Shown: one piece after another, positions 4,022-60,304 of the stretch
Layout of the letters: each line of letters opens with the position of its first letter
How positions within the stretch are numbered: the stretch's first letter is position 1
NCBI GenBank assembly: GCA_965113315.1
Contig: OZ220364.1
Direction: 5' to 3' (one strand)
Length of the DNA stretch: 64,000 bases
Source: Podarcis vaucheri
Taxonomy: Eukaryota
Program-made: the position numbers and the translations under genes
The notes under the pieces: generated by a model
Seen by the model: only the letters and a program-made list of their open reading frames with translations
Told to the model about the DNA's origin: nothing
Database searches by the model: none

Positions 4022-4474
4022 TGTCAGGGGATGATTAGCTGCTTGTGCTTAAAATTGTGCCCCTTCAGAGTTTGTGCGGCCCCACAAACCTCTGTGTGTG
4101 ACAGAGCTCCTCAGACATGTCTGCTCTAGTCACTAGTAGTGTCTGACAGTGGCTGCCTGCGGAAGCGCTTCCAGCAAAGAAGTTCCTTAACGGAAACGCG
4201 TCTCCTGGACTCACGACGTGGCAGCTTCCGGCGAAGCATGGGTCTCCCTGCAGTTGCTTCTGACACCTCCCCGCTATTTTCGCTGGATGTGTCTCTCACC
4301 CCTTTCTCTCCCCTGCTGTTTCCTGCCTGGGCTGCTGCGTCTCTCTCAGCATTACTGAGATCCTCCTCCAGAAACCCCTCGCTCCCCCTCCTTGTCCCTG
4401 CTTTGGCTGCTGACTCTCTCCCAGTCTCTGGGAGCCCTACCAACTCCCTTTCCTCTGATGTCAGTTCCCTGACA
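4022..4474 (-). repeat. 3' LTR of Gypsy element
   Basis: Direct repeat of 9129-9581; preceded on the minus strand by purine tract ggaggggaggtgga. Confidence 0.97.
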
Positions 4475-7400
4475 TCCACCTCCCCTCCAGGGCCCCCTTC
4501 TCCCCCGCCCCTACTCTCTCCTCTGGGCGGTGAGGAGCTGAAACCCCGAAAAGAATCCTCTTCATCTTCAGACGTCTCGAACATTTCCCTCCATCGGTCT
4601 TCGTTCCGACTCGCTGAATCCTCCTCCACCTCGGAATCAGAGAACCCCTCCAACTCTTCTTCTTCGTCGGTGGTGGCGAAGTATTCCCTCCGGAACCTCG
4701 CCACTGGCTGGGGTTTACGAGGGAATCTCTGATGAAAAGTTTCAATCAAAACCTCGTCATCTACATCCTCTGCCCTGACCCAGGTGTTTTCCGACTCCGG
4801 CTCCCCTTCCCACATTACCAAATACTCTACTTGCTCTCCCTTCCACCTGGAATCGAGAATCTCCGCTACATGGTAGCTGTGTTCTTTTTCCTCCATAGCT
4901 GGTCCCCTATTGACCCTCCCCTCTCTGTCCCCTTTATACGGTGACAGCAACGACCTGTGGAACACTGGGTGCAACTTCATGTGGTTCGGTAACCGGAGTC
5001 TGAAAGCCACTGGGTTGACCTGTTGCGTGACTTCAAATGGGCCCAGCCTTTTGGGTCTTAACTTCTTACAACCTCCTTTGAATGGTAACCCTTGGGTGGA
5101 CAGCCACACCTGGTCCCCCACCCTAATGCTTTCCCCTTCCCTTCTGGTTTTGTCTGCCTGCCTCTTATATTCCTCCTTCGCCCTGTTTAAATTAAGTTGG
5201 AGCTGGCGATGGATCGCTTCCATTTCTTCAACGAACTGTTCTGCGGCTGGAACGCTCCAGTTCTCCCCTTCCCCCCCTGGGAAGGCTCGGGGATGACACC
5301 CGTGATTAGCCAAAAAGGGGCTCATCCCCGTGGACACGTTCTCTGCATTGTTGTAGGCAAATTCTGCCAACGCCAGCTTCTCCACCCAATCATTCTCTCT
5401 GTCATTCACATAACACCTCAAATATTGCTGGAGGACACCATTAGCTCTTTCCGCCTGCCCGTTGGTTTCTGGATGACGGGCAGTTGAGAAATTCACCTCT
5501 ACATGCAATAAGCTCATGAGCTTCCTCCAGAACCTGGAAGTAAATTGTTTCCCTCGGTCAGAAACCACCCTCAAGGGGGCGCCATGCAGCCTAAACACAT
5601 TTTCCACAAACAATTTAGCGGTTTCTTCCGCTGTGACCGCATGTGAGCAGGCTATAAAGTGGGCCATCTTGGTTAACAGGTCTACCACAACCATGATGGC
5701 TGTTTTCCCTTTGGACCTGGGCAGATCAGTCATGAAATCTATTGCCACTGCCTCCCATGGCCTTTCCAGCGTGGGTAGTGGTTCTAATAAACCTGCCGGT
5801 GCCCGCCTCTCCCCCTTGGCTCGTTGGCATTGGTCACACCCTCTCACATACTCCCGCACATCTTCCCTGACCTTGGGCCACCAGAATTCCCTGGTAACCA
5901 GCCACATGGTTTTGTGTTGCCCAAAATGCCCTGCTGTGGGGCTATCGTGCAGTTGCTTGAGTACCTTTTCCCTCAATTCCCCTTCAGGTATGTATAACGC
6001 TCCCTTGTAGTACAACGCCCCGTTTCTCTCCTCAAAACCCCCGGGTTTGTCTCCCTCCCTCCTGAGACCCCTGAGTTTGTCCTGGGCGTATTCATCCTGC
6101 ACCGTTCCCTCTACCAGTTCCCTTTGCCCCACCAATGCCGCCCCACACACCCAGCGGTCCTCGGGAATGACATGGGTCTCTTCGGGTGCACCCTCTCCCT
6201 CCAAATATTCAGGTTTGCGTGAGAGAGCGTCCGCCCTAACGTTCTCTGGGCCTGGTACGTAACAAATCTCAAAGTTAAATTTGGAGAACTCCTGGGCCCA
6301 TCTCAACTGCCGTTGGTTGAGCACTCGCGCAGTTCTCCAATACTCTAGATTCTTATGGTCCGTGCACACTTGCACCTTCTGTTGTGCACCAATTAGCAGG
6401 TGCCTCCATCTCCGGAAGGCCTCATGAATCGCAAGAAGTTCCCGGTCGTACACCGTGTAGTTCCTCTCAGATTTGTTCAGCTTTCGCGAAAAGAAGGCAC
6501 ACGGTCGCCACTCTGACCCCTCCTTCCCCGGCTGCAGAAGAAGCACCGCCCCTATGGCTCTGTCAGAAGCGTCTGTTTCGACCCTCAGCTTTTTTTGTAA
6601 ATCCACATGTAGAAGTTGTTCATCAGAGGCGAAGGCCCTTTTCAGTTCCTCAAACGCTCGCTCCGCCTCCCCCGTCCAAACAAACTTCTTTTTACTGCTG
6701 AGACAGTCCGTGATGGGCGCCGTCAGGTGGGCGAAGTTTCGGATGAACTTACGATAAAAGTTTCCAAACCCTAGGAACCTCTGCACATCCTTCTTGGTCT
6801 TGGGTGTTTTCCATTCCAGCACCGCTTGAACCTTGCCGGGGTCCATGGCCAACCCCTTGTCTGACAAGCGGTACCCCAGGAATTCCACCTCCTTGGTATG
6901 AAACTGACACTTCTCCAGTTTCACCCACAGCCTGTTGGCTTGCAGCCTGCTCAACACTTCTCTGACGTCTCTCACATGTTGCTCCTCATTCTCCGAATAC
7001 ACCAACACGTCATCTAAGAAGGCCACACAATTCTTGTAGAGCAAAGGCCCCAGTACGTGGTTCATGAAGGCTTGAAAACACGCGGAGCCTGTTTGTAATC
7101 CAAAAGGCATAACGAGGTATTCAAATGCCCCCAAAGGGGTGAACATGGTGGTCTTCCATTCATCCCCTTTCCTTATACGTATCAGGTTGTACGCCCCCCT
7201 TAGGTCCAGCTTTGTAAAAATCTTTCCTTTCCGCACCCTGGTCAAAATATCATCAATCCTGGGCATAGGAAAAGCCGCCGGCTCTGTCACTGCATTTAAC
7301 CGCCTAAAGTCACATACCAGTCTCGGCTTGTCCGTGTTTTTTTTATCCACAAAAAACACTGGGCTACCCCCCGCTGCCTTGGACTCTCTGATGAAGCCTC

Positions 7401-8130
7401 TCTTCAGGTTCTTGTCAATGAACGCTCGCAACTCCTGCATTTCCCTGTCTGACATGGCATACAACTTGCCTACAGGAAGCTGTGCTCCAGGGAGTAAATT
7501 GATCTGGCAATCAAAGGGCCTATGCGGGGGTAGTTGGTCAGCTTCCTTCTCGCTGAACACGTCGCTGAGATCAGCATACTGTGGTGGCACCTTCCCCTTC
7601 CCCATTACTTCAGTCCCTGCCAGGGTGGCTTGGGCCCCTGCTGACCCCTTTTCCCCCCTGCAGTGTTCTAAGCAATGTGCAGAACCGAAGGAAACCACTC
7701 TTTGATGCCAGCCCACCAGCGGATCATGTAAGGCTAGCCAGCTCATTCCCAAAATAATGGGAGCGCCTCCCAAGGTGGCCACATTAAACGCTATCAGTTC
7801 TGTGTGCCTTGCCACCCTCATTATCATTGGGACGGTCTGCAAGCTAACTCCTCCTCCCAACAGTTCCCTGCCATCGATCGTGGTCACCTGCAGGGGGTTG
7901 CTTAAAGGGATAGTCTGTATCTGATGTTCAGCAGCAAACTCCTTGCTCATAAAATTGCAGGAGCTGCCTGAGTCCAACAGCGCCTTTATTTTTAGGGGGT
8001 GTCCATTTTGCAGCTCTAGCGACACTTCAATCACTAGAGCAGGTCGAGGAGCTTCTGGCACGGGCACTTTCACTGCTCTTTGGCCTGGCTGCAGTGCCCT
8101 GACGGTGGCAACCAGGCGTTGGCTTTTACC
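4126..8130 (-). CDS. Gypsy Pol (PR-RT-RNaseH-IN-chromodomain plus C-terminal extension), probably made by -1 frameshift from gag
   Basis: LLDSGS protease, FLDD RT, TDAS RNaseH, HHCC/DDE integrase, GPF module, chromodomain YHVAEILDSR...YLVMWEG...NTW; frame open from the slippery site at 8130. Confidence 0.96.
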   Translation of the reverse strand, partial: GKSQRLVATVRALQPGQRAVKVPVPEAPRPALVIEVSLELQNGHPLKIKALLDSGSSCNFMSKEFAAEHQIQTIPLSNPLQVTTIDGRELLGGGVSLQTVPMIMRVARHTELIAFNVATLGGAPIILGMSWLALHDPLVGWHQRVVSFGSAHCLEHCRGEKGSAGAQATLAGTEVMGKGKVPPQYADLSDVFSEKEADQLPPHRPFDCQINLLPGAQLPVGKLYAMSDREMQELRAFIDKNLKRGFIRESKAAGGSPVFFVDKKNTDKPRLVCDFRRLNAVTEPAAFPMPRIDDILTRVRKGKIFTKLDLRGAYNLIRIRKGDEWKTTMFTPLGAFEYLVMPFGLQTGSACFQAFMNHVLGPLLYKNCVAFLDDVLVYSENEEQHVRDVREVLSRLQANRLWVKLEKCQFHTKEVEFLGYRLSDKGLAMDPGKVQAVLEWKTPKTKKDVQRFLGFGNFYRKFIRNFAHLTAPITDCLSSKKKFVWTGEAERAFEELKRAFASDEQLLHVDLQKKLRVETDASDRAIGAVLLLQPGKEGSEWRPCAFFSRKLNKSERNYTVYDRELLAIHEAFRRWRHLLIGAQQKVQVCTDHKNLEYWRTARVLNQRQLRWAQEFSKFNFEICYVPGPENVRADALSRKPEYLEGEGAPEETHVIPEDRWVCGAALVGQRELVEGTVQDEYAQDKLRGLRREGDKPGGFEERNGALYYKGALYIPEGELREKVLKQLHDSPTAGHFGQHKTMWLVTREFWWPKVREDVREYVRGCDQCQRAKGERRAPAGLLEPLPTLERPWEAVAIDFMTDLPRSKGKTAIMVVVDLLTKMAHFIACSHAVTAEETAKLFVENVFRLHGAPLRVVSDRGKQFTSRFWRKLMSLLHVEVNFSTARHPETNGQAERANGVLQQYLRCYVNDRENDWVEKLALAEFAYNNAENVSTGMSPFLANHGCHPRAFPGGEGENWSVPAAEQFVEEMEAIHRQLQLNLNRAKEEYKRQADKTRREGESIRVGDQVWLSTQGLPFKGGCKKLRPKRLGPFEVTQQVNPVAFRLRLPNHMKLHPVFHRSLLSPYKGDREGRVNRGPAMEEKEHSYHVAEILDSRWKGEQVEYLVMWEGEPESENTWVRAEDVDDEVLIETFHQRFPRKPQPVARFRREYFATTDEEEELEGFSDSEVEEDSASRNEDRWREMFETSEDEEDSFRGFSSSPPRGESRGGGEGGPGGEVDVRELTSEERELVGLPETGRESAAKAGTRRGSEGFLEEDLSNAERDAAAQAGNSRGEKGVRDTSSENSGEVSEATAGRPMLRRKLPRRESRRRVSVKELLCWKRFRRQPLSDTTSD
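8067..8130 (-). promoter_or_regulatory. -1 ribosomal frameshift signal (G_GUA_AAA plus H-type pseudoknot)
   Basis: Heptamer at 8130-8124, 6-nt spacer, stem gcctggttgc/gcagccaggc, second stem gggcact/agtgccc; pol lies in the -1 frame. Confidence 0.75.
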
Positions 8131-9083
8131 TGCTCCGTTTCTCCCTGCTCTCCCCCCTCAACTGCTCCCACCATCCCTTGCCATTCCTTCCTCTGGGGGC
8201 AGACTCTGGCAAAGTGGCCTGGCTGTTGGCAGAGATAGCATTTCCGGGCTCCCTTTCCCTCCTTCTTCGCCCCCTCACTGGGCTTTGAAACTGCGCGCGC
8301 GCGGGCTGTTCCGATTTCCATCGGCTCTGCCGGCGGGAAAGCTGGCTCAGGAATGTCTGGAATGCGTAACTCCTTCCAACGTTCCCCTCTCCCTTCCCGC
8401 CTCTCCAAGGCTCTTGCCTCCTGGCGCGCTCCAATGGTCAGCGCAGATTTGGTCAGCTGATCCATAGACACCGCCCTGGGGCTCCTGGACAGCTCGTCTT
8501 TCACAGCCGAAGAAAGACCTTCTTCAAATAGCATCTGAATGGGTGCTGCCGATAAATCCCACCCCAATCTGTGAATCAGCATGGTAAATTCAGTCCAGTA
8601 CTCACGGACAGATCTGCTTCCCTGCTTGCAAGCCATTAGCTGTCTGCGCACCACCCCTTCCTCAATATCGCTGGAAAACATGATATCCATTGCACGAAAG
8701 AATTTCATAGTGTCCTTTAGGATATCGTTGTGCGTTGCCATCAGGGGTCGAACCCAGTCCCGCGCCCCCTTCTCAAGATGCCCAATTACGAAAGCAACTC
8801 GCGATTCCTCATCAGGGAACTCATCAAACTGCACATTCAGGGCATATTGCATCTCGGTCCTAAAGGCATGGTAATCCTTGGGGTCCCCCCCAAACTTCTG
8901 CACCAATCCTGGTACCTTTCTGGGGAACTGAGTGGTTCTCCCCTTTTTGTCAGCATCCTGAGCCCTTCTCTCCTCGAGCCTCGCCGTCTGCAGCGCAAGT
9001 TGGACCTCCAGAGCTTGATACCTTTCTTCCAAGCTTGGACCAGCTCCAACCCCTGCGTCTCCGGTTCCGACTGGGTTGCTCAT
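8070..9083 (-). CDS. Gypsy Gag (capsid plus CCHC nucleocapsid)
   Basis: First ATG at 9083 (MSNPVG); QGSRSVREY capsid motif; CYLCQQPGHFARVC zinc knuckle. Confidence 0.95.
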   Translation of the reverse strand: MSNPVGTGDAGVGAGPSLEERYQALEVQLALQTARLEERRAQDADKKGRTTQFPRKVPGLVQKFGGDPKDYHAFRTEMQYALNVQFDEFPDEESRVAFVIGHLEKGARDWVRPLMATHNDILKDTMKFFRAMDIMFSSDIEEGVVRRQLMACKQGSRSVREYWTEFTMLIHRLGWDLSAAPIQMLFEEGLSSAVKDELSRSPRAVSMDQLTKSALTIGARQEARALERREGRGERWKELRIPDIPEPAFPPAEPMEIGTARARAVSKPSEGAKKEGKGARKCYLCQQPGHFARVCPQRKEWQGMVGAVEGGEQGETEQVKANAWLPPSGHCSQAKEQ

Positions 9084-9128
9084 GATGCTATCTCCTGCAC
9101 AGGCAGCGTACAAAGACTGTCAGACTGC

Positions 9129-49076: not shown

Positions 49077-49691
49077 TCACAATCCCAGCCAAGTCCTTAA
49101 CTTAGCCACCACTGCACCCAGCCACGCCTTGTTCCCTAAGGTCGAAAGGTGCACACCATCATCCCTAAAGAGAGATGCATCCTGAAAACGAATCTCCGGA
49201 TGTGCAATCACATCACCTCCCAGCTCAAAAATCTTTTTGGAGACCGCGGCATTAATCCGCTTTCTGGCTCTTTCTGTGGCACTCGGGCAAAGACTGCCCC
49301 TCCAAACCCGTCGTTGTAAAAACTTAGACCAGAATATCTTTGCTGTCGGCACCATTGCTCTCAGCACCTCCAGGTCGCTCAAAATTGTAGCACGTAAAGA
49401 TAAACAGTCCATGGACACCATGTCGTTCTCACCCAGCTGAATCACAATGGCTGTGGGCGGCCGTTCCACACCCAACTGCCTCCTCATCAGTGGCAGGAAC
49501 TCCGGCCATAACATTCCCCTTCTGGTCAGCCAAGAAACTTGTACGTGTGTAGGCAGACCGAGACCTGGTCCCAGTCCAAACTGCCGAGCCTCAACGCCAG
49601 CCCAATGCACGATGCTGTGCCCCACCATCCAGATGCGGACAGCCGCTAAACCTGAGGTAGATAAACAAACATAAGAGATGTTAACGGACAT
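49077..49691 (-). CDS. SGNH/GDSL hydrolase of the Ngaro element
   Basis: Block I WMVGHS, block II RRGM, block III QLGEND, block V DGVH. Confidence 0.88.
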   Translation of the reverse strand: MSVNISYVCLSTSGLAAVRIWMVGHSIVHWAGVEARQFGLGPGLGLPTHVQVSWLTRRGMLWPEFLPLMRRQLGVERPPTAIVIQLGENDMVSMDCLSLRATILSDLEVLRAMVPTAKIFWSKFLQRRVWRGSLCPSATERARKRINAAVSKKIFELGGDVIAHPEIRFQDASLFRDDGVHLSTLGNKAWLGAVVAKLRTWLGL

Positions 49692-50670
49692 AGCCTCTAA
49701 AGGCGTCAGATTTCCAGCGGCCCAAGTTCTTTATTCTATTGGCTGACAGTCCCCAGTGCGCTGCTGTCGTGGCAGCTCCAATCCTAAAAGAATGTGGGGC
49801 GAAATCATGTGCGGAGCCACCACTAGCCTTAATGGCCTTTCGCATCACCATTGTAAACTGACGTCTGGACAGAGGCAAACCGTTCTCATGCCTCAACAGA
49901 GGACCGTCCCCTGGATTTCGGACGGCAAGGTACCTCCTAACATCCTTGACCGGGCAAGGTCCTGCCTCCCCTGTAGCCGGAAGCCTAATAAGGGCTCCCC
50001 TGCCTTTTTGGTCCGTTTTAGAATTCCTAATTGTAAGTCTCAGCTCCGTCAAAGATAGCTGTACGTCCTGGAGCAACAAACCCCTAGAACGGCCGTCCCT
50101 GTGAGCTTCCAGCACAAGCTCACCAACCCTTAGGGCTCCAAAAAAGGCAATGGAAAAAGCCGCAGAAAAAAGGCGAGCCTCATACCCTGACCAGCAAAGC
50201 TTCCTCAACTCCTTGCGCATCTTACTTAATAGGTCAAAGGAGATCGGGTGCCTAGCGGCTGGTTGAGAAGGACAAATCCTACCCCACCCTTCAAGGGCCT
50301 TGCGCACCACAAACTTCGCGCAAGGATCCTTGTCGAATAGAGATTTACAGAAAAAGGCAATGGCGGCTGCCTGGATCCGTATGGTCTTAGGCGCACGTCC
50401 CAATTGGAACAGGTGCGCCAGATACCTTAGCACCTGTGATGAGGAAGGAGAAGCCCTCATCTCTTTCCCTACCGACTGATATGTAAAGGCCAGAAAATCA
50501 GTCCACGCTTTGGTGTACGACCTGAGGGTAGAAGAGGAAACAGAAGCAGCTACTCCCTGAAAAACTAATTCCTGCCAAGGTTCCAGAGATGATCCGGGAA
50601 ATATTCCGGACGTAACCGAGCCTCTGGAACCAGGAGTCTGAACCGCTCCATCTGAAAACGGGACAGAGCA
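49681..50670 (-). CDS. Tyrosine recombinase (frame open to 50670; first ATG only at 50460)
   Basis: ALRVGEL, SKTDQ, HSFRIG, GRW...Y; upstream in-frame SVSSSTLRSYTKAWTDF looks like the N-terminal binding domain. Confidence 0.95.
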   Translation of the reverse strand, partial: CSVPFSDGAVQTPGSRGSVTSGIFPGSSLEPWQELVFQGVAASVSSSTLRSYTKAWTDFLAFTYQSVGKEMRASPSSSQVLRYLAHLFQLGRAPKTIRIQAAAIAFFCKSLFDKDPCAKFVVRKALEGWGRICPSQPAARHPISFDLLSKMRKELRKLCWSGYEARLFSAAFSIAFFGALRVGELVLEAHRDGRSRGLLLQDVQLSLTELRLTIRNSKTDQKGRGALIRLPATGEAGPCPVKDVRRYLAVRNPGDGPLLRHENGLPLSRRQFTMVMRKAIKASGGSAHDFAPHSFRIGAATTAAHWGLSANRIKNLGRWKSDAFRGYVR

Positions 50671-52295
50671 TCAGCAATTTCGTTAGACACTCCAGGAATG
50701 AAACGTGCAGAAAACACTATATTGTGGCGTAAGCAATGCAATACAAAAGCGCGCAAAAGGGCCGACACCCTAGGAGAGCGGGACGACAGCTTGGCCAGCA
50801 CGTTCACCACCGCCAGGTTATCGGTCCAGAAGCAAACGCGTCGGTCCCTGAACTCATCGACCCACAAGTGTACTGCCACTGCAATAGGAAAGAACTCAAG
50901 AAAAGTTAGATCACGCGTAACGTCTCTCCCTTGCCAATCCAGTGGCCAACGCATGGCGCACCATCTGCCCTTCCAATATAGACCGAAGCCTTGGGAACCT
51001 GCGGCATCCGATTGCACCTGAAAGTCATTATGCAAGTTCAACGTGTCTTGCCATAACGACACTCCATTGAATTCCTCCAAGAATTCAAGCCAAATGCTGA
51101 GATCAGCCCGTACTTCTCTAGATAAACGGACCCGATGATGTGGGGCCTTCAAACCCACGGTAAGCCGGGCCAGACGGGAACAAAAAGGGCGTCCAGGGGC
51201 CACCACCCTGCACGCGAAGTTCAGGTGACCCAAAAGCGATTGGATCTGCCTAAGGGACACCTTCTCCAAAGGGATCACTTCCTCTATGACCGTCTTCAAA
51301 GCAACCAGCTTATCCATTGGCAAGCTGGATGTTTGGGACACCGTATCCAAGAGGATACCCAGGTAAGTAAGTTGGGTTGCCGGACCCTCTGTCTTGTCCG
51401 CTGCCAGCGGAACCCCGAGTTCCTGCGTAAGGTCAGCAAAGGCCTGGAGCAACAACGAACAATTGCCAGATTCAGCATCTGAGGCCAATAAAAAATCATC
51501 CAAATAATGAGTGACCCCGCCCAGCCCGGTTTTTTGCTTGATGGCCCACTCCAAAAAGGTACTGAATGATTCAAAAGCAGCACATGCTATCGAGCAACCC
51601 ATAGGCATGGCCTTGTCAAAATAATATTTCTCCTCGAACCGAAAACCTAGGAGCCAAAAATCCTCCGGGTGAATTGGCAACAATCTAAAAGCCGATTCGA
51701 TATCGCATTTTGCCAATAAAGCAGCCCGTCCAAATTTTCGAATCATCTTAATTGCATAATCAAGGGAGGCATACTTTACTGAGCAAAGTTCCTGAGGAAT
51801 CACGTCATTAACCGAGGAACCCCTAGGATGCGATAGATTATGAATTAAACGAAATTCACCAGGGGCCTTCTTTGGCACAATACCCAAAGGAGAGATGTGC
51901 AAATTATGAAAAGGCGGGGCACAGAATGGGCCCGCCATCCGATGCATGGACACCTCCTTTGCAATCTTTTTCCGGGCGATTTCAGGTAATTCACGGACTG
52001 ACTTTTGATTAGGGGGATTCCGTGCCACGGGAGGCATGGCTACCGGAATCCGAAAACCCACAGAAAAACCATCACTTAAGTAATTTGCGGCGTCCCTATT
52101 GGGGTAAGATTGCAGCCATCGTTTAAGAGCCGGCAATCGTACCGGGGTGTGGGCCAATGATGTCAACACACTATTTTGCTGCTCCTGAGGTTGACGGGAG
52201 GGGGGGGGCTGACTTGGGAGGTTGCTGAGAACCTCCTCTGCCTCCACGAAAGGGCCGCCTACCACTAAAGCAAGAGGAAGCAGGATGCGTTCCAT
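50565..52295 (-). CDS. Reverse transcriptase / RNase H of the Ngaro element
   Basis: KCDIESAFR, MPMG, YLDDF, SDAAG, LEFFPI, TDN, ADALSR. Confidence 0.96.
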   Translation of the reverse strand: MERILLPLALVVGGPFVEAEEVLSNLPSQPPPSRQPQEQQNSVLTSLAHTPVRLPALKRWLQSYPNRDAANYLSDGFSVGFRIPVAMPPVARNPPNQKSVRELPEIARKKIAKEVSMHRMAGPFCAPPFHNLHISPLGIVPKKAPGEFRLIHNLSHPRGSSVNDVIPQELCSVKYASLDYAIKMIRKFGRAALLAKCDIESAFRLLPIHPEDFWLLGFRFEEKYYFDKAMPMGCSIACAAFESFSTFLEWAIKQKTGLGGVTHYLDDFLLASDAESGNCSLLLQAFADLTQELGVPLAADKTEGPATQLTYLGILLDTVSQTSSLPMDKLVALKTVIEEVIPLEKVSLRQIQSLLGHLNFACRVVAPGRPFCSRLARLTVGLKAPHHRVRLSREVRADLSIWLEFLEEFNGVSLWQDTLNLHNDFQVQSDAAGSQGFGLYWKGRWCAMRWPLDWQGRDVTRDLTFLEFFPIAVAVHLWVDEFRDRRVCFWTDNLAVVNVLAKLSSRSPRVSALLRAFVLHCLRHNIVFSARFIPGVSNEIADALSRFQMERFRLLVPEARLRPEYFPDHLWNLGRN

Positions 52296-53697
52296 TACAT
52301 TTATCGCAATTATGTGAAAATCTACAGGCTGGACGCTGGCAAGAACCCTTATTAAAATCCCAGCATAACAAACGACGGCCAGATCTAAAAGCCGAAAACT
52401 TCGGCTTTTGTTGTTCCGGCACTTTCTTATCTATTAGTGGAGCTACATGAGTAGTCCACACATCTAGATCCTTTCGATCCCAGCGGGCTGAAGGGATCTT
52501 GGCAGCACGGCGTCTGAAATTCTCATCATATTTGATCGCCGCCTTCTCTCCGGCCTTGGAAAATGCGGAGCGCACAATGGATAGATATACTAACAGATGG
52601 AGAGACCTCCGTGGATAGGCTGCCACTACTACACCAGCGAAAACCTGAAAACAGTCGAGCCAATGCTCGAAAGACCTGACCACTGCAGAGGCCCCTGTAC
52701 GCTTTTTGGGTGAAAAACTTTCTTTTTCCTGATCCTCAGAAGGTGGGAGCAATTTGAACATATCTACATAGCGGCCATTTAAAATTCTGGACCGCATTTT
52801 TGACGACAAATGCGATCCCGGTATGATGTCTCTAGCAGAGTTGGTTGATACTTTAACGTCGGGAACCAACACACCATCTTTACAATCTAAGACCGCACCA
52901 TATTGTGCCCTATGAGTGTTGGATCTTCGATCCCAAGCCCACCTTGGAAGCCCGGAGACCGATTCACCAAAACCCCAGTAAAGCTGCATATTAGTACCCT
53001 CATCATCGGAGCTAGATGAAGACGTACCGGAATGAGAGGAAGAAGTGTCGTCCCTCTTCCTCTTGGCGCGCTTCCGAGATGACTTCTTTGGGCGACGTTT
53101 TCCTCCCAAAGACTTCCTGGCAGGTACTGGGAGACTGTCTTCAACAGACGACTCAGATTCGAGCTCCAGTTGAGATGGAACTGAAACAGACTGCACAGAG
53201 ACAGCATGTGAGGTGCCAGAACCCGAGGCCACCGCAGCCGGATGGCGAGCTGACCCACGCCTGCGAGTCGACCCTGCCACAGGGGCACTTATTCCTGAGG
53301 CCCTCCTAGAGGAGCGACCAGACCTCCGAAGCTGACCCCGGTCTGCAGGTAAGACAGGAGACTGGGATAACTGGGGGTTCGTGAGCAAACCGCCAGATGA
53401 TGACCCTTCTGCCCCATCTTCACTAGAAGAGGGTGAAGCCGGAGACGATGCCAACGCAGCAGGAAGCTGGCTTCCAGACGTGGACGGCTGGGTGGAGCAA
53501 CGCTGCAGGAAACCATCCATTTCAGCTGCAAAGCGAGAAAGTGCTGCAGGGTCGCCAGCCATGCTCGCCACCAAAGACTGTACCCGCCCTACTGGTTGGC
53601 CTGCAGAAGGTGAGCGGAGCGCCTGGGATGGGCCTCTAATCGGTCGTTTAGCAGCGGTGGCAGGGCTGGAACGATTGACGGCCTTCTTCGGACCCAT
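52171..53697 (-). CDS. Gag-like ORF1 of the Ngaro element
   Basis: ATG at 53697 (MGPKK); Ser/Arg-rich N-half with basic NLS-like KRRPKKSSRKRAKRKR; YDENFRR core; CWDFNKGSC...C..H.C..C...H....C zinc finger. Confidence 0.92.
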   Translation of the reverse strand: MGPKKAVNRSSPATAAKRPIRGPSQALRSPSAGQPVGRVQSLVASMAGDPAALSRFAAEMDGFLQRCSTQPSTSGSQLPAALASSPASPSSSEDGAEGSSSGGLLTNPQLSQSPVLPADRGQLRRSGRSSRRASGISAPVAGSTRRRGSARHPAAVASGSGTSHAVSVQSVSVPSQLELESESSVEDSLPVPARKSLGGKRRPKKSSRKRAKRKRDDTSSSHSGTSSSSSDDEGTNMQLYWGFGESVSGLPRWAWDRRSNTHRAQYGAVLDCKDGVLVPDVKVSTNSARDIIPGSHLSSKMRSRILNGRYVDMFKLLPPSEDQEKESFSPKKRTGASAVVRSFEHWLDCFQVFAGVVVAAYPRRSLHLLVYLSIVRSAFSKAGEKAAIKYDENFRRRAAKIPSARWDRKDLDVWTTHVAPLIDKKVPEQQKPKFSAFRSGRRLLCWDFNKGSCQRPACRFSHNCDKCNGTHPASSCFSGRRPFRGGRGGSQQPPKSAPPLPSTSGAAK

Positions 53698-53817
53698 ACC
53701 TGCTAGCCGGAGAAAGTCAAAACCAATTAAATTTCGCAAATCACTACGACCAATACTAATTTATCAAGCTTCCCAAGCTAAACCTAAGGTCCTATCTCAC
53801 TGTACCAACGAAGTCTC

Positions 53818-57997: not shown

Positions 57998-58272
57998 AGA
58001 ACCTAAGAAGAGCCCTGCTGGATCAGGCAATAGGGCCATCTACTTCCAGCATCCTGTTCTCTCCAAAGGCCAGCCAGATGCCTCTGGTTGGCCCCAAAAC
58101 AGGAGCTGAGTCCAACAGCGCTCTCCCCACTTGTGATTCCCCCAACAGATATTCAGAGGCATGCTGCCTCCGACAGTGGAGGAAGGATGTAGTCATTTGG
58201 CTATTAGCCCATGACAGCCTTATTCTCCATGCATTTGTCTTGTTTTTCAAAGCCATCCAAGTTGATGGCCAT
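57998..58272 (-). mobile_element. CR1-like LINE 3' fragment
   Basis: Similar to 18567-18806. Confidence 0.6.
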
Positions 58273-58377
58273 CTTGAGCTTGTTTGGAGGTTCTAGCAGG
58301 GGAGCGCAGCTATCGTATACCCTTGACCGAAGAACGGTACACTCCTTCTATCTGGGATGGTCGTCCTCTTCCACCGA
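58273..58377 (-). pseudogene. RN7SK: 7SK snRNA internal fragment (retrocopy)
   Basis: Reverse complement tcggtggaagaggacgaccatcccagatag...cttcggtcaagggtatacgatagctgcgctcccctgctagaacctccaaacaagctcaag matches the central part of vertebrate 7SK as I recall it. Confidence 0.93.
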
Positions 58378-58756
58378 TTGAGAAATACTGTAAAATTTAT
58401 GAATGTTAAATGGACGTTGGATGGAAAATAAGCGGTGTCGGTAAAAAGATTAATAAGAATATGTAAATATAGATTGATAATGAGGGGAAATGTATTTTTA
58501 ATATAGGTTAAGAGTTTGAGTAAAGTTAAGGATAAAGGGTAAGGATTTGCTGAACTAAATATTTGAACTGGAATACAAAAAGGGAGGTGTGAGGAGGTCA
58601 AGAAACTAGTGATGAAGTATAGGATATGAAAATTCTAATCTTTTTTCTGTTCTGTTTGTTGGTGTTTTTTGTTCTTTTTTCTTATTCTGTTAAATGTTTC
58701 TTTTGTTCTGTATTTTTATTAATTGTTGAATAAATATTACTTTAAAAAAACAACAA
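58378..58756 (+). mobile_element. L1-like LINE 3' end
   Basis: EKYCKIYEC* ORF end, purine-rich then T-rich UTR, AATAAA, A-rich tail; shares a 19-bp TSD with the 7SK piece. Confidence 0.7.
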
Positions 58757-60304
58757 CAAGTTGATGGCCATCTTGGAACATGTGCATGATCAGCCCCGAT
58801 GCTGTCAAAACAGAGCAGTTGAGATCTAACGGATTGGGGATCCAGCAAGTCCTGTGCTGGCTCAGACACTCTCTGGAATATCCATTTTGGGGGTACTCCA
58901 AGGACTGCCACCAGCAGGGACCCTTCTGGCAACCAGGCAGTTAGCAGAAGGGGAAGTTCCACACTGGGCACCTCCACCCAGCCCATCAAGTCTTGAGCCG
59001 GCCTGGTGCCAAGGGGGGGATTGAATTATATCCTAATTTGCAGATACAGTTTGTTTAATTCTTAAAGCTTTATTGATTTTGTTGGATAAAAGTGACAATT
59101 CATAGGGAAACAATCCAAAAAGAACCACCTAACTGGCAAATTTCACACATTTTACTTCTTTCTGCGAAAGAGCAGCAGGCTCTGATACTAGGCTTTCATA
59201 CCACTTTTCCTATAATGGCATCAAAGTGAGCTACGTTATTATTCATGCTTGGTTGTTAATAATTTCACCCTAAGAAATCCCAGCCACCAACACCATTTTC
59301 TGTTGCAGGAGAGGACTAGGTTAAGTGTGCATCTGTTGACAAGCATGAACCAGCCAACTCTGCAAACATTTTTTCCATGTATCTATGATTTTAAGATAAT
59401 TAGGTGGAACTCTATTGCCTAGGGAAAACCAATCCTAGTACATCATTTTCCAGATAGCAGGGCTTCTGTCATCTTCCTTCTTAAAATACCCTTCATTCTC
59501 ACATATTCTGTCATCTGGTTCATAGCTCAATAAATATAGTATTTTTGTGCTTTTGGACTGAATCTGAAGAGAAGAGAATCAGCTCTGTTCTCTAACATGA
59601 TCTGTCACTAAACCCTTGCGGAATGGAATTAGTCATCAACTGGTGTATAAACGTTGTGTGCTGTTTACATCACGGATCCTTCCCCTCCCTTCACCCCACA
59701 TTAATTTCCATTCCAACTTGTCCTCATCACACTCAGTTTCTGTCCATGGTGGTAGAATTTTACATAAGTAGTTGTGTAATTAACAAATTGTGTTATTATG
59801 CTATTCCACATCATTTATTTCAGTGCAAAAGAAACACGGTGGGAATTATGGTGGACTGAGCATATTTGCTGCATTGATTTTCACTCCAAGCGTGGAACGA
59901 ATCAGCAAACATGAGCAATTTCTGCTTCTGTTGGAATTCTCCTGCATCCCCAGCTCCTCATCCCCCAAAGCCTCTGTAAAGAGTCAGGAGCTGTGTCTTA
60001 TGGGCTGCTGTATGACGATAGAGAGGATGGGGAAGTTATGCAAAATCAGGTAGAAGTACCTTGTGTGGATGCAGCTTCGCTTGCTCAAGGTGATTTCTTT
60101 CTCCCCCAGCAGCTCCTGTGTCAGAGGCCACTTTGTTCAGGAGAGGCCATGGGCTATGGTGGTGGTGGGGCAGGAAAAAACGCATTGCACAAATGGCCTT
60201 CTGATAATAACACAACCTTTGGATACCGCCCATTATGCCTAGATGCCTTTTTCAGATTTCCTCCCAGCACAAAATAAAGCCACAGAAAATACAGTTTTAA
60301 ATGG

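Follow-up and report, generated by a model that had tools for sequence, protein, structure and literature searches.

The 64,000 nucleotides of Podarcis vaucheri DNA analysed here (the window; C10:63984001-64048000 of a 1.61-Gb genome) contain a dead retrocopy, with no expected function, in which an internal fragment of 7SK snRNA is joined in antisense orientation to a 5'-truncated L1 within one target site duplication (TSD; Table 1). It most likely arose by a single, young, L1-driven insertion involving twin priming in trans, or 'dual priming', and it belongs to a class spread over the genome, in which insertions of L1, non-L1 LINEs and mRNA carry captured 7SK at their far end. Both the mechanism and the antisense 7SK/L1 structure have already been described, and the locus is a real by-product of retrotransposition; what is added here is the high frequency of such chimeras in the P. 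vaucheri genome, a break site common to human, and partners other than L1.

Table 1. Parts of the antisense 7SK/L1 insertion and its target (window coordinates)
Feature	Position	Strand	Remarks
Left TSD copy, 19 bp	58258-58276	+	19/19 identical to right copy; mostly the end of the old host repeat
Right TSD copy, 19 bp	58757-58775	+	19/19 identical to left copy
7SK snRNA nt 136-240, antisense to L1	58273-58377	-	105/105 against host gene L010; Rfam match
Overlap of TSD end and 7SK nt 237-240, 4 nt	58273-58276	+	Putative priming site on 7SK
Three extra bases at the internal junction	58378-58380	+	Neither 7SK nor L1; same as the last 3 TSD bases
5'-truncated L1 3' end, 376 nt	58381-58756	+	Sister-copy alignment; family ORF2 C-terminus
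Last ORF2 codons, stop	58407-58409	+	Within the L1 part
AATAAA in the L1 part	58729-58734	+	
A/C tail of the L1 part, short	58744-58756	+	
Old high-copy repeat, insertion target	58000-58272	-	3051 candidates in genome search

The first-pass annotation had placed both parts within one 19-bp TSD, and a repeat search bears this out: an exact direct 19-nt repeat encloses the 7SK part, the three extra bases and the L1 part, and a simple calculation puts the number of exact 19-mer repeats in 2 kb of random sequence at about 7e-6. Its description of about 105 nt of internal 7SK in reverse orientation, the first 4 nt of which also belong to the left TSD copy, is equally accurate. 7SK is the sole Rfam family matched in the whole window (RF00100, minus strand, 35.6 bits versus a gathering score of 35); as reported, that match reaches out to 58152 and 58411, but there the alignment overshoots, as the host gene matches over the interval in Table 1 only. 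The apparent host gene, L010, comes from an own-genome search in which the best 40 of 250 candidates were scored; it is 332 nt long, has a TATA box upstream and ends in a T-run. The window piece is truncated at both ends and is without the 5' and 3' hairpins. Moreover, the sense L1 3' end and its tail had been recognised correctly, but the start assigned to it, 58378, was not: 36 of the 39 other copies scored begin at query base 4, so that the L1 part starts at 58381, and the three preceding bases are unlike both L1 and 7SK in the 19 sister copies inspected. The L1 part spans the last ORF2 codons, the 3' UTR, the poly(A) signal and the tail, and has 39 other copies at 89-96% identity among the best 40 of 1965 candidates; C-interrupted tails are present in sister copies too. 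Two further elements were noticed in the window, a Ty3/gypsy chromovirus-type LTR retrotransposon at 4126-9119 (minus strand), whose gag (349 aa) and pol (1343 aa, including a chromodomain) frames are open, and, at 49681-53760 (minus strand), a set of three long frames that overlap, one of them encoding an RT domain, for which no match to L1 or non-L1 ORF2 queries was found at E 1e-6.

The partner is assigned to L1 because longer sister copies encode an ORF2 C-terminus with 85% identity to the ORF2 of a full-length element elsewhere in the genome (L133); the L133 ORF2 (1274 aa) carries endonuclease and RT domains and aligns with human L1 ORF2p over its whole length (residues 32-1240, E 6e-177). 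Pfam searches gave no match for three ORF2 C-terminal pieces and, for two ORF1s, no match beyond a weak coiled-coil. The insertion target is an old repeat, presumably a CR1/L2-type LINE 3' end, whose best full-length paralogues in the genome search are at most 76% identical. These paralogues carry the motif that forms most of the TSD; the TSD therefore represents duplicated target sequence, and the old repeat and the young 7SK piece did not arrive together. The pre-insertion target would also have contained a 6-bp inverted repeat with an 11-nt spacer (58256-58261 and 58772-58777), with both nicks at equivalent positions of its arms, which may be due to chance. As for the age of the two parts, comparison with the majority base in 19 sister copies shows the L1 part to be changed at 7 sites in 255 nt, or to carry 3 private substitutions in 340 nt, and the 7SK part has no change in 105 nt relative to the host gene. 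The Poisson chance of 0/105 is 0.056 at the first rate and 0.40 at the second; the ages of the two parts are compatible, the difference not being significant.

These features would be accounted for as follows. The L1 ORF2p would nick the bottom strand, and reverse transcription of the L1 RNA, begun at its tail, would cover about 376 nt. A nick in the top strand at a distance of 19 nt would leave a 3' end whose last 4 bases could pair with 7SK nt 237-240, in the distal loop region of stem-loop 3, and reverse transcription would then run along 7SK as far as nt 136. The two cDNAs would finally be end-joined without microhomology, the three extra bases possibly being copied from the target end. 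By the Rfam consensus the 7SK break lies in the apical loop of stem-loop 3, and a ViennaRNA single-sequence fold gives unpaired probabilities of 0.19-0.29 at nt 240-242 versus 0.81-0.99 at nt 237-239; the predicted loop position of the break is thus partly supported by the two models. Both nick sites read alike at the window locus, and the site is not of the mammalian TTTT/AA type. At the class level, the 17 L1 chimeras have more pyrimidines at the LINE-side nick (66/85) than on the side of 7SK (46/85; p=0.002), in a test weakened by the ambiguity between TSD end and T-tail, which suggests that the LINE is primed at the endonuclease site.

The first-pass annotation had proposed a genome scan for further inverted snRNA-LINE chimeras, and such a scan for 7SK shows that the window locus is far from isolated. 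Loci were drawn from the genome search (30 loci), an exact pattern (64 matches), an anchor at 7SK nt 1-70 (30 of 40 listed) and 20 wider stretches of 10 kb; together they yielded 83 distinct 7SK hits (two with identical flanks were merged), or 79 non-redundant loci once the gene and three duplicates were removed. A locus was counted under a strict rule, which combined a TSD score of at least 12, an inverted tail with a poly(A) signal directly past the distal TSD, and inverted homology to a LINE close to the 5' end of 7SK. In this sample, which is no census, since it favours young copies and most loci were selected for containing nt 210-234, 27 of the 79 are antisense 7SK/LINE chimeras within one TSD, 17 with L1 and 10 with a non-L1 LINE; the upstream context of 1.4-2.5 kb at most loci means that long partners were missed. 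When the anchors were shifted downstream as a control, a TSD with a tail was found in 1 of 308 trials. The 27 chimeras vary in partner family, partner length (52-6002 nt) and breakpoint, and the 7SK break lies at nt 230-246 in 24 of them. The 7SK copy reaches back to nt 1-3 in 19/27, which is what reverse transcription begun at the target end and continued off the 5' terminus of the RNA would give; the window copy stopped at nt 136. Overlap between 7SK and the TSD averages 2.04 nt, as against 0.65 +/- 0.18 nt under a two-sided null that did not reach this value in any of 2000 draws. A general tendency of the internal junction to repeat the TSD end was considered and rejected, as it does so by 3 or more bases in only 2/27, the one other than the window being an A-run.

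The sample anchored at nt 1-70 involves no selection on the 7SK 3' end. Here, 11 of 30 loci are chimeras by the strict rule (8 of them visible within 1.5 kb), inverted LINE homology lies within 100 nt in 16/30, and of the 27 3'-truncated copies, 16 have their end at nt 234-246. The same region (nt 235-241 in 6/8) is where plain tailless 7SK copies with tight TSDs stop, and target priming there is therefore independently common. A matching U6 sample contains no antisense chimera among 30 loci; seven rows, representing six events, are co-oriented with L1 homology, in agreement with the first-pass statement that U6-L1 chimeras are normally co-oriented. The difference between the two RNAs (8 versus 0) gives a Fisher p=0.005, with the U6 sample diluted by several probable genes. 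The window insertion is no chimera of the co-oriented U6/L1 type, its 7SK part being opposite to L1 and truncated at both ends.

A few loci of the two samples are recorded for their structure. One (L017, G000:C29:32141120-32144225) is the sole co-oriented 7SK(9-240)-LINE chimera among the 83 hits; it has a 17-bp TSD and breaks at the same hotspot. Another (L013, G000:C10:68675357-68678476) is an independent inverted 7SK/L1 chimera inserted into the same old repeat family as that of the window and almost at the same point of the repeat, with an imperfect TSD of about 11 bp that leaves it outside the strict set. At L005 and L030, 7SK copies are flanked on both sides by inverted L1-like sequence with no clear TSD, and may represent three-part events or insertions into L1. 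Among the U6 loci, L229 (G000:C1:88810256-88813315) consists of a full-length U6 followed by a sense 364-nt element, which we take to be SINE-like, within a 13-bp TSD.

The partner elements extend the class from L1 fragments to complete elements and to other LINEs. L133 (G000:C25:16372400-16382399) is a 6.0-kb full-length L1 with open ORF1 (367 aa) and ORF2, capped at its 5' end, head to head, by antisense 7SK 1-246 within an 18-bp TSD, and L134 resembles it (4.4 kb, 19-bp TSD). At L135 (G000:C37:39716700-39726699), a full-length non-L1 LINE with two open ORFs stands head to head with 7SK 1-186; its TSD score of 10 places it outside the strict set. The family of this element is very young (37 of 40 scored 3' ends are at 98-100%), and its ORF2 is like that of L1 in the RT region only (28% to L133; E 7e-31 to human ORF2p). 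The non-L1 partners are APE-RT LINEs distant from L1, presumably RTEX. In 15/15 plain copies inspected, the L135 family lacks poly(A) and terminates in a short motif that shows slippage repeats, and the same motif ends 4 of the 5 strict chimeras of the family, the fifth having poly(A). TSDs average 17.5 nt in chimeras with L1 versus 13.8 nt in those with non-L1 partners (p 2.4e-4), a contrast that holds only among chimeras, since plain L1 copies, scored by a looser method, give a noisy mean of 14.6. Among plain copies of the non-L1 family one TSD was found in 15, 12 of which extend past the 1-kb stretches. Because of the family-type ends lacking poly(A) and the different TSD length, these observations suggest that the non-L1 LINE chimeras were inserted by their own enzyme. 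Finally, L139 (G000:C18:32041501-32051500) joins antisense 7SK 1-172 to an intronless copy of glycyl-tRNA synthetase (GlyRS) mRNA, a processed copy of 1.56 kb with an open frame of 462 codons and a 12-bp TSD.

Four other scenarios may be weighed against twin priming in trans. In the first, a single event also takes place, but the 7SK part is a free cDNA, made by a jump of the L1 RT or added as a repair patch, and then joined to the target by microhomology. The geometry would be the same, as the 3' end of the cDNA corresponds to the 5' side of 7SK, and truncated LINEs commonly show overlaps of 1-4 nt where their 5' junction is of the ordinary kind; indeed, target priming and the joining of a pre-made 7SK cDNA are inseparable from DNA alone. 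This route needs, however, a pool of free cDNAs starting at nt 230-246, and the plain tailless 7SK copies end at the same place, which target priming covers with no further assumption. Work on tailless retropseudogenes also argues for internal priming (PMC5322556). We therefore regard the joining of a free cDNA as unlikely.

In a second scenario two insertions took place in sequence, L1 arriving first with its 19-bp TSD and a 7SK cDNA later, at the L1 5' junction, with a duplication of 3-5 bp. It is because the three extra bases repeat the end of the TSD, so that 7SK lies between very short direct repeats, that we keep this scenario at all, and slightly more differences are found in the L1 part than in the 7SK part. 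Yet the two parts do not differ significantly in age, the TSDs of plain 7SK copies measure 13-19 bp, and the same placement at 27/79 loci cannot arise by independent landing; sequential insertion is accordingly very unlikely. A pre-formed chimeric RNA, whether from read-through of a source locus or from a SINE-like family headed by antisense 7SK, would account for the single TSD by ordinary TPRT, but the window alone spans the junction among the best 40 of 163 candidates, where a second full copy would rank top. By the same result the fusion is no multi-copy SINE-like or snRNA-headed SINE family, an outcome that the first-pass annotation had named as one that would refute its reading. Moreover, ligation to 7SK RNA would yield the sense orientation, and the 27 chimeras differ from one another in partner and breakpoint, which makes a pre-formed RNA highly improbable. 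Last, 7SK on the minus strand is followed at once by the 3' end of the old repeat in sense orientation, and L013 shows a similar junction in the same repeat family, but a co-oriented 7SK/old-repeat chimera made by template switching on the minus strand, with the L1 incidental, is ruled out for practical purposes by the contrast in age (a repeat at least 24% diverged from its best full-length paralogues next to a 7SK identical to the gene) and by the 19 bp of target duplicated beyond the L1 tail.

Twin priming in trans thus remains the best explanation of the locus, as the first-pass annotation had concluded, but it is not a new proposal. 'Dual priming' was put forward for insertions with two poly(A) tails, and left unvalidated in that paper (Meyer et al., 2010; PMC2837659); as there, two different RNAs would be primed at the two nicks of one site, but the second RNA here would be primed internally. 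Seven inverted chimeras of U5, U1, U2 or U6 with L1 have been modelled by twin priming (Doucet et al., 2015; PMC4476161). They likewise join a 3'-truncated small RNA, opposite in orientation, to a 5'-truncated L1 with complementarity at the junction, theirs being truncated in a loop; the RNAs are other ones, and 7SK is absent from the main text of that study, which ascribes Anolis U6 chimeras with L1, L2 and RTEX to template switching. The closest precedent is a human catalogue (Cell Genomics 2026; PMC13174262), the supplement of which lists four 7SK/L1 rows, three of them antisense (7SK 15-238, 10-235 and 12-238), and which invokes twin priming for antisense chimeras. In both species 7SK lies antisense to a 5'-truncated L1 within one TSD, with 7SK ends at 235-238 in human and at 240 here. 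In contrast to the four human rows as tabulated, at least 27 loci are found here; the human TSDs are of 7-9 bp as compared with 19 bp in the window, the window 7SK is also 5'-truncated (nt 136), its L1 is non-mammalian, and this genome has non-L1 partners as well.

Tailless retropseudogenes show 3' truncation at single-stranded regions, attributed to internal priming, and include 139 human cases derived from 7SK; lizards have tailless copies too (PMC5322556; PMC2912911). Such copies stand alone between their TSDs, whereas here the other end is a LINE. The region of the break is reported to exchange between two states in human 7SK (PMC10810284). Within the literature searched, chiefly papers that need no subscription, no reptile or non-L1 class of antisense 7SK chimeras was found, and the supplements of other papers may list cases.

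The mechanism given in the first-pass annotation is probably right, but its further inference, that 7SK was present at the L1 RNP, cannot be drawn from the locus and is too narrow. Pull-downs of human L1 RNPs did contain 7SK, HEXIM1, MEPCE and CCNT1, and among two-hybrid partners of the human ORF2p endonuclease domain HEXIM1 was the strongest (PMC3753637). The same capture is seen, however, with non-L1 LINEs (10/27) and with an mRNA retrocopy; therefore, it is not restricted to the L1 RNP, and proximity of 7SK to an open insertion site is enough.

The class offers at least 27 independent cases, compared with three in human, enough to measure the priming hotspot, the overlap length and the TSD length by partner. 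Antisense capture is thereby extended to non-L1 LINEs, and the priming and joining of the second end of LINE insertions, a long-open question, becomes directly testable. We tentatively put forward, as a possibility rather than an expectation, that 7SK capture at the second DNA end is routine in this genome and independent of LINE clade, and that retrotransposon integration intermediates across amniotes recruit the 7SK RNP or are enriched in it. If so, at least a third of young 7SK retrocopies would be antisense 5' caps, found on L1, on non-L1 LINEs that seem to use their own enzyme, on intact elements of full length and on an mRNA copy; priming would in every case fall within the stem-loop-3 region used in human, and recruitment would perhaps occur via HEXIM1 or chromatin and repair complexes, 7SK not being a chance passenger of the L1 RNP. 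Were 7SK specifically present at insertion sites, the 7SK/HEXIM1 complex would be linked to integration.
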